A DNA stretch of 64,000 nt from Vulcanimicrobiota bacterium (GCA_039809865.1 JBDHVW010000011.1:31470-95469); one strand, 5' to 3'. Shown: positions 7,978 to 10,814, counted from the stretch's first letter. Program-made: numbers and translations. Notes: generated from the sequence alone by a model not told the origin.

Positions 7978-9174
7978 ATGCAGATTCAGGGCAGTGGCAA
8001 GGGCTGGGTGAAGCTCTTGATTCTCGGCGGTGCCGTGGTGATCGGCTTGCCGCTCGTCGTGGGCGGGCTCTACTTCTTGTTCGGCAACAAGGGGGAGAAA
8101 GAGTCGGCTCCCAAGCCCGAGGAGAAGCCGCCGCAAGACCGGCCGAGCCCCGAGAAAGCAATCGCGCAACCGATCGTTCCCCAGCCCGTAGGCACCAATG
8201 GCTCGTCGGCTCCGCCGCCGGTTGCGGAGGCTCCCCCGCCCAAAGAAGAGCCCCAGATGCTGGAAGAGGTCGTGCCGGTGGAGGAGTCGTTCGAGCGCAT
8301 CGAGGAGTCGGTGGAAGAGTCTTACGAGATCCCCGCCAGCCTGGAGACGCTGCCCGTGTCTTCGGAGGAGTCGCCCCGCGTGGTGCCGGCCGAGATCCAG
8401 GAGTTCCGCTCGGCCATGGTGGCCGCCATGCGTCTGCTCGAGGAGAAGGAGCCGCCCAAATGGCTGTCCTCGATGCTGGGCAACGTCAAATCGTTCGGGG
8501 TGGACAGCGAGAAGACGCCCGACCGGCGCCGCAGCATTCGCGTCCACAGCCAGCTGGCGCTCGACTTCAAGCTGGGCGACAAGACCGGTCAGGCGCAGGT
8601 GGTCAACATCGGCCTTGGCGGCCTGCACCTCTATCTCGATATCGAGCCCGAGCGGGGCGATACGATCGTGCTGCTCGACCCGGCCGTGGGCAAAGCCAGG
8701 CCCATCGGCATCAAATACCAGGTGCAGTGGGTGCGCAAGATGCCGCGCAGCACGCGCCTGCTGGTGGGCGTGAACTATGACGAGAAGCCCGAGACGCTGG
8801 CCAGGTCCCGCCTGGCGCAGCTGTTGTCCGAGCTCGGGTTTCTCGAGAAGCTCATCTACCGGCGTCGGCGCAGCCGCCGCGTCAAAGCGCGCATCGAGGT
8901 GGCCGTCAACAAGCAATATGACGGCACCGTGCTGAACATCGGCGTGGGAGGCGTGCTGCTCGAGTGCGCCGAGGAGCTGGCCGAGGGCGCCAACATCTCC
9001 CTCACCGTCGGTCCCCAGGGCCGACTGTACGCTCTGAACACCGCCGGGGAGATCCGCTATCGCCTGAAGACCGAAGAGGGATGGCATTACGGAATCCGAT
9101 TCTTGCACTTGAATCCGGATCAAGTCAAACTTCTGGGCAAATACGTGCTGGAGCAATTGAAGGAAGAGGCTTAG
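7978..9174 (+). CDS. Membrane-anchored tandem PilZ-domain protein (putative c-di-GMP receptor)
   Basis: GGAGG RBS 5 bp upstream of the ATG at 7978. N-terminal TM helix, then a Pro/Glu-rich linker. Two PilZ signatures: RRRSIR...DxxLGGLHL and RRRRSRR...NIGVGGVLL. Confidence 0.75.
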   Translation: MQIQGSGKGWVKLLILGGAVVIGLPLVVGGLYFLFGNKGEKESAPKPEEKPPQDRPSPEKAIAQPIVPQPVGTNGSSAPPPVAEAPPPKEEPQMLEEVVPVEESFERIEESVEESYEIPASLETLPVSSEESPRVVPAEIQEFRSAMVAAMRLLEEKEPPKWLSSMLGNVKSFGVDSEKTPDRRRSIRVHSQLALDFKLGDKTGQAQVVNIGLGGLHLYLDIEPERGDTIVLLDPAVGKARPIGIKYQVQWVRKMPRSTRLLVGVNYDEKPETLARSRLAQLLSELGFLEKLIYRRRRSRRVKARIEVAVNKQYDGTVLNIGVGGVLLECAEELAEGANISLTVGPQGRLYALNTAGEIRYRLKTEEGWHYGIRFLHLNPDQVKLLGKYVLEQLKEEA

Positions 9175-9215
9175 CGACCGGGAAATCCCTCAGGATTGGC
9201 TCGCCGGAGGTGGGG

Positions 9216-10814
9216 ATGGACGGTGAGCGCCGAGAGTCAGCGGTGCCATTGCAAGATGAGGTCTTACGCTCCCAGATCAAGCTCGGGAGTACGGCGCAGA
9301 GCTTTATCCAAGAGGTGGCCAGCGCCATCCCCGACCCCGTATTCGTCAAGGACAGCCAGCATCGCTGGATCTTCATGAACGACGCCATGTGCAAGTTCAT
9401 GGGTTACCGGGCCGAGGACCTGGTGGGCAAATCAGACTACGAGTTCTTCCCCGTCGAGCAGGCGGACGTGTTCTGGGCCGAGGATGCCCGGGTCTTCGAG
9501 ACGGGCCTCACGCGCGAGAACGAGGAGTTCTTCACCGACGCCAACGGTCAGACGCACACCATCTGGACCAAGAAAACGCTGGCCCGCACCAGTGACGGGC
9601 AGCCCTTCCTGGTGGGGGTCATCCGCGACATCACCGAGCGCAAGCGGATGGAGGCCGAGCTCATTCAGGCGCGCGAGCGCTCCGAGACGGCCACCCGGGC
9701 CAAGTCCCAGTTCCTGGCCAACATGAGCCACGAGATCCGCACCCCGATGAACGCCATCATGGGCATGACCGAGCTGCTGCTCGACACGCCCCTCGACGCC
9801 GAGCAGCGTGAGTATGCCGAGATGTCCCTGCAGGCCGCCCGGTCGCTGTTGGGCATCATCAACAACATCCTGGACCTCTCCCGCATCGAGGCGGGCAAGA
9901 TCGTGCTCGACCAGATGCAGATGGACGTCCGGGCCCTGGTTCAGGAGGTCGTCGAGTTGTTCGGCTACCGCGCAGCGGACAAGGGCGTGGCGCTGACCTG
10001 TAGCTGCGGGGAACCCTTCGAGACCTGTCTGGTGGGCGACCCGGGACGGCTGCGTCAGGTCCTTACCAACCTGGTCGACAACGCGGTCAAGTTCACCGAC
10101 CAGGGCTCGGTCAAGGTCGCCTGCGAGACGACGCCCACGGCCGACGAGAGGGTCTGGCTGGCGCTCGAGGTGAGCGACACCGGTATCGGCATTTCCCCGG
10201 CCGGTCAGGCGTTGCTTTTCGACGAGTTCAGCCAGGTGGACAGCTCCAGCAAGCGGCGCCACGGCGGCACGGGGCTCGGCCTGGCCATCACGCGTCGTCT
10301 GATTGAAGAGATGGGCGGCGAGATCAACGTGGAGAGCTCGCTGGGCAGCGGCACCACCTTTCGCCTCGGACTGCCGTTGCAGCGCGAGTCGCAAGACGTT
10401 CCGCCGCTCGAGCCCGAGCACATTCTGCCGGCCAGCTTCCAGGGGAAGGTGCTGGTGGCCGAGGACAACGCGGTCAACCAGCGCCTGGCCCAGCGGATGC
10501 TCGAGAAGCTCGGTCTCGTGGTCGACCTGGCGGCCGACGGCAAGCAGGCCCTCGAGAAAGCCTGCCAGGGCGACTACCGCCTGGTCTTCATGGATTGCCA
10601 GATGCCCGTGATGGACGGCTACGAAGCCACGCTCAAGATCCGGGATCTGCACGGAAGGCGGGGGAAGGTCCCCATCGTGGCCATGACGGCCCATGCGATG
10701 GTCGGAGACCGCGAGCGCTGTCTCGAGGTCGGAATGGATGACTACCTGACCAAGCCGATCGCCCAGATGGCGCTGCGCACCACGCTGGCGCGCTTCTTGG
10801 ACGGACGACCTTGA
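9216..10814 (+). CDS. Hybrid sensor histidine kinase (PAS - HisKA - HATPase_c - REC)
   Basis: GGAGG RBS before the ATG at 9216. PAS region, then H-box '[10 protein letters not shown]'. Kinase motifs N (LVDNAVKFT), G1 (DTGIGI) and G2 (GGTGLGL). C-terminal receiver with '[13 protein letters not shown]' and conserved K in 'YLTKP'. Confidence 0.85.

Follow-up and report, generated by a model that had tools for sequence, protein, structure and literature searches.

The question raised by a 64,000-nucleotide stretch of DNA deposited as Vulcanimicrobiota bacterium (GCA_039809865.1 JBDHVW010000011.1:31470-95469), and referred to here as the window, is why it should twice encode a protein with two PilZ domains just ahead of a hybrid histidine kinase, and whether cyclic di-GMP (c-di-GMP) is in this way brought to bear on a phosphorelay. 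The window (G+C content 66%) comes from an uncultured lineage of Candidatus Xenobia (Eremiobacterota), with 'bacterium CPR1' and 'Candidatus Xenobia bacterium' among the source names. We call the two pairs PilZ-A and HK-A (for histidine kinase), at locus A, and PilZ-B and HK-B, at locus B. The original prediction held that the loci are copies of a duplicated module in which occupancy of the PilZ protein by c-di-GMP is coupled to kinase output. We find that the pairing is real and is probably more than chance, that the two loci are not copies of each other, and that modulation of each kinase in trans by its PilZ neighbor is a reading to be offered tentatively, with somewhat less than an even chance of being correct.

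Results

Two Loci Pair a PilZ Protein with a Hybrid Kinase

A phmmer scan of all six-frame open reading frames (ORFs) of the window identified two PilZ proteins and two histidine kinases and no more of either, and these are paired. Domain calls with Pfam, for which some 55 ORFs of the window were scanned, bore out the predicted arrangement of a tandem-PilZ protein followed by a PAS-HisKA-HATPase-REC kinase, occurring twice, with the domains at or near the places where they had been proposed to lie. Both PilZ-then-kinase pairs are kept, with order and spacing alike, in every close Xenobia relative that we examined, at 66–84% identity. In these relatives locus A (PilZ 66–79% identical) consists of a divergent GGDEF-EAL gene followed by PilZ-A, HK-A, and genes for a HlyD/YknX protein, an ABC ATPase, and a MacB_PCD/FtsX protein. 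Locus B consists of SufE and rhodanese genes on the minus strand, YjbQ, PilZ-B, and HK-B on the plus strand, and a Macro-domain gene on the minus strand, with only about 35 nt separating PilZ-B from HK-B.

Among the loci that we fetched, which amount to 508 kb, every kinase match lay directly downstream of an orthologue of PilZ-A or PilZ-B, and the other Xenobia loci, about 100 kb in all, contained no kinase. Because there is no other kinase in the window or in those other Xenobia loci, the double adjacency is unlikely to have arisen by chance. Taking the background density of kinases to be roughly 2% of genes or less, we estimate roughly that the probability of at least two of seven paralogues adjoining a kinase by chance is p ≤ 0.008, for a sample that is small and non-random. 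That two non-sister members of one family should each adjoin a kinase is thus probably more than chance, and this non-random double adjacency lends modest support to a role as c-di-GMP adaptors resembling that of HapZ for the kinase SagS (see Discussion).

The Two Pairs Are Not Copies of One Module

Pairwise alignment of the partners did not sustain the idea of a duplicated module. PilZ-A and PilZ-B align colinearly over about 240 aa with 28% identity (E 2e-20), and HK-A and HK-B align with 34% identity (E 2e-71, 336 bits), the best-matching part being the C-terminal receiver domain (REC; 52% identity). When HK-A was used as the query against 5.8 billion proteins, its orthologues headed the matches at 76–84% identity, and upwards of 120 hybrid kinases of unrelated origin (Methanothrix, Betaproteobacteria, Desulfobacterales, Acidobacteria, and others) scored 443–598 bits at 37–47% identity, all of them above HK-B. 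We also ranked the kinases domain by domain in a set of 123 sequences, made up of 120 listed matches to HK-A and three HK-B sequences. The HK-B sequences either had no match to HK-A in the PAS region or stood last of the 109 sequences that matched; they ranked 120–122 in the DHp domain, 73–115 in the catalytic (CA) domain, and 27–67 in the receiver. Scores against the NCBIfam equivalogs for named kinases (BarA, TorS, ArcB, and RcsC) reached at best 399 and 377 bits, as compared with a cut-off of 890 for BarA. As judged by sequence, then, HK-A and HK-B belong to the BarA/TorS/ArcB-like class as generic representatives, with no specific relationship between them.

A similar picture emerged for the PilZ proteins. 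In a sample of 51 members of the family to which both belong (see below), PilZ-B ranked 32nd for PilZ-A and PilZ-A ranked 39th for PilZ-B. Some 25–30 members that have no kinase neighbor outscored the pairing of PilZ-A with PilZ-B, and several (P0138, L045/L053, P0144, and P0140) were closer to both proteins than these are to each other. The two fell into different clades of a neighbor-joining tree, which was built without bootstrap and whose deep branches are indicative only. By these sequence comparisons PilZ-A and PilZ-B are distinct, non-sister members of one family.

The shared segments on which the prediction had leaned are indeed present at both loci, but they are not diagnostic of them: VGxNYDE is a motif of the whole PilZ family, and the H-box segment is a feature of the kinase class, given the low rank of HK-B against HK-A domain by domain. 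With both partners related at background level, as seen in the more than 120 kinases above HK-B, the per-domain ranks, and the PilZ ranks, we rejected duplication of a unit. It looks instead as if a PilZ adaptor had been recruited to a kinase twice, independently, or as if an old association had been kept in only these two lineages; the pairing is not a recent duplication of a module.

A Family of Double-PilZ Proteins Expanded in Xenobia

A profile search of 1.84 billion representative proteins defined a double-PilZ family of about 245 aa, with 63 clusters when the threshold is set at E ≤ 1e-30 and 517 when it is relaxed to E ≤ 1e-10. Ca. Xenobia has an expanded set of at least seven paralogue types, PilZ-A and PilZ-B among them, and in these two types only is the PilZ gene followed at once by a gene for a soluble PAS hybrid histidine kinase. 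At least five further types, from the metagenome-assembled genome (MAG) series JAANM*, have no kinase beside them; their neighbors encode YbbR together with an Hsp70-like protein, alpha-2-macroglobulin, a LigD primase-polymerase, a beta-lactamase, and an Ig-like/lipase protein. The Xenobia paralogues were located on contigs L022, L023, L024, L032, L038, L039, L043, L045, L053, and L059.

A scan of genome contigs gave only eight loci. Metagenomic loci were retrieved with a hand-made degenerate DNA pattern for the SWVK..L...GF/RRxxxR linker of the family, and of the 40 loci so obtained about 30 contained true members. No histidine kinase was found in the flanks of these roughly 30 members, except for one that is an orthologue of PilZ-B. 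The proposal that the pair is conserved as a unit therefore holds among close Xenobia relatives and fails beyond Xenobia, as seen in these metagenomic members and in three further cases. The nearest outgroup to PilZ-B (P0008, 40% identity), from another MAG of the Eremiobacterota, is followed by unrelated genes. On L017, from a MAG labelled Burkholderiales, the double-PilZ gene lies in a Pel-like operon (5962-12108) between a gene for a GAF protein, preceded by those for a PelF-like GT4/DUF3492 protein and PelG, and a gene for a TPR protein; on L019 the double-PilZ gene comes after that for a HAD-type protein. There is no histidine kinase nearby in either L017 or L019. We also observed Pkinase genes near some members of the family, namely a Pkinase-WD40 gene downstream of the member in L054 and L061 (2563-4566 in L054) and a Pkinase gene at 12105-13055 in L017.

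PilZ-A and PilZ-B Are Putative Receptors for c-di-GMP

PilZ-A and PilZ-B score 78.1 and 70.9 bits against the Pfam PilZ model, above its gathering cut-off of 22.5 bits, and nothing but PilZ, and hence no enzymatic or DNA-binding output domain, was matched in either protein in Pfam or NCBIfam. Each barrel of each protein carries the RxxxR motif, as RRRSIR and RRSRR in PilZ-A and as RRQIVR and RRQSIR in PilZ-B. In an alignment of 45 members of the family, (R/K)RxxxR is retained in both barrels in 44. The second motif takes the form D-x-G-x-x-G in barrel 1 and N-x-G-x-x-G in barrel 2, as compared with the canonical [D/N]xSxxG; in each barrel 42 of the 45 have the D or N, and all 45 have the last G. 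PilZ-A has N-I-G-x-G-G in both barrels, and PilZ-B has D-I-G-P-G-G in its first half and G-V-S-M-G-G in its second.

An AlphaFold2 model of PilZ-B (pLDDT 81.6, pTM 0.47) contains two beta-barrels, a helical linker, and a C-terminal helix. Its best matches in Foldseek were the two-barrel c-di-GMP receptors PlzA, MotI, MrkH, PlzD, YcgR, and PP4397 (probability 1.0; E 4e-9 to 4e-5 for PlzA, MotI, PlzD, YcgR, and PP4397), and the PilZ domains of Alg44 and BcsA were matched, likewise with probability 1.0, as single-barrel folds. The only sequence match to solved PilZ proteins was a marginal one, to barrel 2 of MotI (E 0.0024), and we found no sequence-level relationship to MrkH. From motifs and model together, PilZ-A and PilZ-B are putative c-di-GMP receptors for which ligand binding is plausible.

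The Kinases and Their Candidate Outputs

Both HK-A and HK-B have the makeup of a hybrid kinase, with a HisKA domain bearing the H-box His, a HATPase_c domain, and a REC domain in Pfam, and both are soluble, with hydrophobicity maxima of 0.9–1.15. The ED...D...T...K pattern is intact in the translations of the receiver of HK-A and the second receiver of HK-B. The first receiver of HK-B (window 44300-44650, residues ~539–650) does not have the conserved Thr/Ser. Orthologues of HK-B of 680 aa (L001, L014, and L016) have a single receiver that matches the second receiver of the window's kinase, and the orthologue in L006 is, at 797 aa, long enough for two. No Hpt domain was found in HK-A or HK-B in Pfam or NCBIfam, and no Hpt gene was found among the window ORFs scanned against Pfam.

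Between the two loci lies a gene for an RpfG-like REC-HD-GYP protein with intact HD and GYP motifs (25303-26376, minus strand), on which a gene for a REC-GerE regulator (24684-25322, plus strand) converges, the 3′ ends overlapping by about 20 nt. The products of these genes are possible outputs of a phosphorelay and are no more than candidates.

Locus A Looks Like a Five-Gene Operon

The features of the two loci are collected in Table 1.

Table 1. Features of locus A and locus B, with positions counted from the first nucleotide of the window
Feature	Positions	Strand	Description
Coiled-coil GGDEF-EAL gene	3214-6648	-	~1144 aa; Pfam EAL 1.9e-59, GGDEF 2.4e-35
Conserved non-coding block 5′ of PilZ-A	7893-7945	+	CACTATAGGGAAAACC...GGCGCGAA
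PilZ-A	7978-9174 (ORF from 7870)	+	398 aa; Pfam PF07238 PilZ, two stretches, E 7e-22, 78.1 bits
HK-A	9216-10814	+	532 aa; Pfam PAS_4, HisKA, HATPase_c, Response_reg
HlyD/YknX-type membrane-fusion protein	10811-12241	+	Pfam HlyD_3/HlyD_D23
ABC ATPase, MacB-type exporter	12232-12930	+	Pfam ABC_tran 2.2e-34; start uncertain, ~12232-12253
MacB_PCD + FtsX permease	12930-14117	+	Pfam MacB_PCD 5e-45, FtsX 3e-22; last gene of operon
YjbQ/UPF0047 gene	41143-41556	+	Pfam 3.8e-43; same arrangement in relatives
PilZ-B	41556-42281	+	241 aa, stand-alone; Pfam PilZ, two stretches, E 1e-19, 70.9 bits
CoA_binding_2 gene	42274-42657 (ORF could extend to 42693)	-	Pfam E 2e-33
Extended -10-like element	42682-42690	+	TGCTATAAT; TGnTATAAT; 6 nt before HK-B ATG
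HK-B	42697-45033	+	778 aa; Pfam two PAS stretches, HisKA, HATPase_c, two Response_reg

PilZ-A differs from its counterpart at locus B in having, as was predicted, a transmembrane and proline-rich N-terminus. A single strong hydrophobic segment at residues 13–31 of the 398-aa form (Kyte-Doolittle 2.46) provides a transmembrane anchor and is followed by a linker in which Glu makes up 21% of the residues and Pro 18%. The two barrels occupy residues ~196–398 (DNA 8554-9174), and about 240 C-terminal residues lie in the Pfam PilZ match. HK-A starts 41 nt past the stop codon of PilZ-A, behind a GGAGGTG ribosome-binding site, and in an alignment of four genomes (as was made for the junctions of each locus) the PilZ-A/HK-A junction, including this site, is 100% invariant. 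The start of the membrane-fusion gene overlaps the stop codon of HK-A by 4 nt, as it also does in relatives. Because the junctions are short and conserved and stops overlap starts, locus A looks like a single operon of five genes, in which PilZ-A and HK-A are followed by those for a MacAB-like exporter. The exporter assignment rests on a membrane-fusion protein, an ABC ATPase, and a MacB_PCD/FtsX permease encoded in a single operon, an arrangement that is alike in relatives.

The non-coding block upstream of PilZ-A is nearly invariant in the four genomes, whose coding DNA differs by 15–25%, and we presume from this conservation that it is a promoter, an operator, or a 5′ leader. We considered a riboswitch and rejected it: the block had no match in Rfam at the gathering cut-off or at E ≤ 10, and it gave no convincing consensus fold, the alifold consensus being weak (-6.3 kcal/mol). 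Farther upstream, the product of the divergent GGDEF-EAL gene has a Glu/Ala/Lys-rich coiled coil of about 650 aa, a degenerate GGDEF motif (RGDDEF), and intact EAL motifs, and is likely, from these motifs, to be a c-di-GMP phosphodiesterase. Between this gene and PilZ-A we noted an ORF of 447 aa (6603-7946, plus strand) that is coding-like in its G+C content at third codon positions (GC3 0.83) and whose 3′ end extends into the conserved block. The corresponding gap is only 142 nt in relatives, and the ORF had no match in Pfam, NCBIfam, PDB sequences, or PADLOC.

HK-B Probably Has a Promoter of Its Own

The first gene of locus B is that for YjbQ, since its stop codon overlaps the start of PilZ-B. 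The second receiver of HK-B and the gene for a CoA-binding protein on the opposite strand, both of which had been predicted, were recovered with Pfam. The latter gene, CoA_binding_2, is convergent with PilZ-B and overlaps it by 8 nt at the PilZ-B stop codon. No such gene is present at the orthologous junction in L006, L001, or L016, and it is therefore an insertion peculiar to the genome of the window.

Just upstream of HK-B is a sequence, TGCTATAAT, that resembles an extended -10 element. It is kept in all four genomes aligned (the window, L006, L001, and L016), and it is the sole occurrence of TATAAT-N4-10-RTG in the window. From this conserved element we predict that HK-B probably has its own promoter, and its short distance from the start codon suggests that the mRNA is perhaps leaderless. 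HK-B would then not need to be co-transcribed with PilZ-B, which would explain how a gene on the opposite strand could be inserted between the two without silencing the kinase.

Beyond locus B, the window encodes on its minus strand a helicase/REase_MTES_1575 protein of 1712 aa (47315-52453) that matches the PADLOC candidate defense models PDC-S37, MkoC, and Hhe. The adjoining gene (52564-54810, minus strand) encodes a metallo-beta-lactamase protein with two cNMP-binding domains, and the annotation of its relatives carries an Anti-Pycsar Apyc1 domain.

Discussion

By analogy with HapZ and SagS, we tentatively read PilZ-A and PilZ-B as receptors for c-di-GMP, each modulating in trans the hybrid kinase encoded next to it. 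Each PilZ protein would bind c-di-GMP, possibly at both barrels, and the liganded protein would contact the neighboring kinase, most likely at its receiver or DHp region, as HapZ does with SagS. Contact would alter phosphotransfer to some Hpt protein and response regulator. PilZ-A would act at the membrane beside the exporter, where the neighboring EAL protein would lower the concentration of c-di-GMP locally. We count in favor of this reading the presence near the loci of genes for enzymes of c-di-GMP metabolism, the GGDEF-EAL gene and the REC-HD-GYP gene. A more elaborate version, which we regard as doubtful, would see in PilZ-A and PilZ-B lineage-specific adaptors with two ligand sites, whose genes are tied to those for soluble PAS hybrid kinases and which gate the transfer from REC to Hpt. 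PilZ-A would tether its kinase at the membrane beside the exporter and the EAL protein, and a self-contained module for c-di-GMP, phosphorelay, and export would have been recruited twice independently in Ca. Xenobia.

Several observations weigh against modulation in trans. The flanking genes are conserved as strongly as the pairs themselves, so the conservation of the pairs among relatives adds little. The neighbors of the roughly 30 other family members are heterogeneous (they also include a Pel operon and Ser/Thr kinases) and do not include a histidine kinase, and the double-PilZ family therefore has no general link to kinases. None of 17 longer proteins with the double-PilZ module that we scanned is fused to a kinase; one of the long proteins has the architecture FHA-GGDEF-PilZ-PilZ. 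In the window, PilZ-B and HK-B are separated by an opposite-strand gene, and HK-B has a promoter-like element of its own, which makes locus B the weaker evidence for operonic coupling. The features that HK-A and HK-B have in common are all at the level of the class, with none marking a shared docking surface. Finally, in 37 of 45 members of the family Gly stands in place of the canonical Ser in the second motif, a change seen in both barrels, and barrel 2 of PilZ-B, which keeps the Ser, has lost the D/N.

The alternative that survives best, a possible though somewhat doubtful one in our judgment, is that the genes are co-located without any complex between PilZ protein and kinase. PilZ-A, as a c-di-GMP receptor in the membrane, would control the MacAB-like exporter in the manner of the PilZ modules of Alg44 and BcsA, and HK-A would be a separate sensor that regulates the exporter or senses it. 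PilZ-B would act elsewhere, and that it adjoins HK-B would be incidental. Such a division of labor would fit a PilZ-A that is anchored in the membrane and an HK-A that is soluble, as well as a five-gene operon whose overlapping stops and starts lead into the membrane-fusion, ABC, and FtsX genes. It is also in keeping with the location of other family members beside genes for secretion or envelope functions (the Pel operon, YbbR, an amidase) and with the promoter-like element of HK-B. What it leaves unexplained is that locus B, which has no exporter, also pairs a member of the family with the only other kinase of the region, and that PilZ-A directly precedes the kinase and not the pump genes.

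That the two adjacencies are accidents preserved by ordinary synteny in a signaling-rich genome seems to us unlikely. The equal conservation of the flanks (SufE, rhodanese, YjbQ, Macro, and C11 peptidase genes at one locus; TPR, GGDEF-EAL, and pump genes at the other) is what such a view would predict, more distant homologues do lack the kinase, and the kinases and the PilZ proteins are each related at background level only. It has to contend, however, with the absence of any further kinase from the 64 kb of the window and about 100 kb of Xenobia loci, with the rough p ≤ 0.008, and with the identical orientation and order of the two pairs, each with PilZ upstream on the same strand.

Descent of both pairs from an ancient duplicated PilZ-kinase unit, after which the kinases diverged strongly or had domains replaced and the kinase beside every other paralogue was lost, is improbable. 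It would account for the like order and orientation, for the PAS-HisKA-HATPase-REC architecture without Hpt in both kinases, and for the receiver being the best-matching region (52% identity, rank 27–67 of 123), but PilZ-A and PilZ-B are not sisters (some 25–30 kinase-less members are closer to each), HK-B stands at the bottom of the 123 in the PAS, DHp, and core regions, and the nearest PilZ-B outgroup, P0008, has no kinase neighbor. Equally hard to credit is the notion that the replacement of Ser by Gly abolishes binding and that the double-PilZ proteins are ligand-independent interaction modules, like the non-binding PilZ of Xanthomonas and XCC6012: Gly in 37 of 45 members, the missing D/N in barrel 2 of PilZ-B, and the very existence of non-binding PilZ proteins speak for it, but those proteins lack both c-di-GMP motifs entirely, whereas here RxxxR is kept in both barrels in 44 of 45 and the D/N and final Gly are strongly conserved, and purifying selection on precisely the positions of ligand contact would be hard to explain without a ligand.

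Were the coupling true, it would be a second, and genetically explicit, case in which c-di-GMP enters a two-component phosphorelay by way of a trans-acting PilZ adaptor, a route documented so far essentially only for HapZ and SagS. Function could also be approached for the first time in a family of double-PilZ proteins with both barrels apparently competent for ligand, in an uncultured class, Ca. Xenobia of the Eremiobacterota, whose signaling is known from sequence only. The components themselves are ordinary, being new members of known families, and the value of the analysis lies in removing the interpretation as a duplicated module and in defining the family and the operon structure.

How do these proteins compare with known systems? 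The solved receptors PlzA (7mie), MotI/DgrA (5vx6), PlzD/VCA0042, YcgR, and PP4397 also consist of two linked beta-barrels, with the c-di-GMP site at the C-terminal PilZ domain. Their TM-scores to the PilZ-B model are low (0.31–0.39) because the orientation of the domains differs or is not well defined. The N-terminal barrel of these receptors (YcgR-N or xPilZ) is without binding motifs, whereas here it has them, and they are known to act on flagellar or DNA targets and not on kinases. Two PilZ-like barrels also make up the tandem PilZ-PilZ proteins (~240–280 aa) of clusters 3 and 14 and MrkH in a PilZ sequence-similarity network, which are mostly uncharacterized (bioRxiv 10.1101/2020.02.11.943704). 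In that survey typically only one barrel of a tandem protein is canonical (bioRxiv 10.1101/2020.02.11.943704), whereas here both barrels keep RxxxR and [D/N]x[G/S]xxG; MrkH, moreover, differs in being a DNA-binding transcription factor.

With respect to the membrane, locus A recalls Alg44, in which a PilZ domain is fused to a membrane-fusion-like domain, and BcsA, in that it joins a membrane-anchored PilZ protein with a membrane-fusion protein and an ABC exporter. It differs in having a separate PilZ protein of two barrels and a MacAB-like exporter with no glycosyltransferase, and in that a kinase gene stands between the PilZ gene and those for the pump. With respect to the kinases, c-di-GMP is known to control a kinase or phosphorelay in the cases of CckA, ShkA, and SgmT, which bind it directly (through a CA domain, a pseudo-receiver, and a GGDEF I-site); here the ligand site would come in trans, from a separate PilZ protein.

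The parallel on which our reading draws is with HapZ (PA2799) of Pseudomonas aeruginosa, which at high c-di-GMP binds the receiver domain of SagS and blocks phosphotransfer. HapZ differs from PilZ-A and PilZ-B in being a single-domain PilZ protein, whereas these are double-barreled, with two apparently competent sites, and belong to a separate family of about 245 aa. PilZ-A is in addition anchored in the membrane, and the kinase genes adjoin the PilZ genes, whereas to our knowledge hapZ and sagS are not adjacent. What the two systems have in common is a stand-alone PilZ protein without an output domain and a hybrid kinase with a C-terminal REC and without Hpt.

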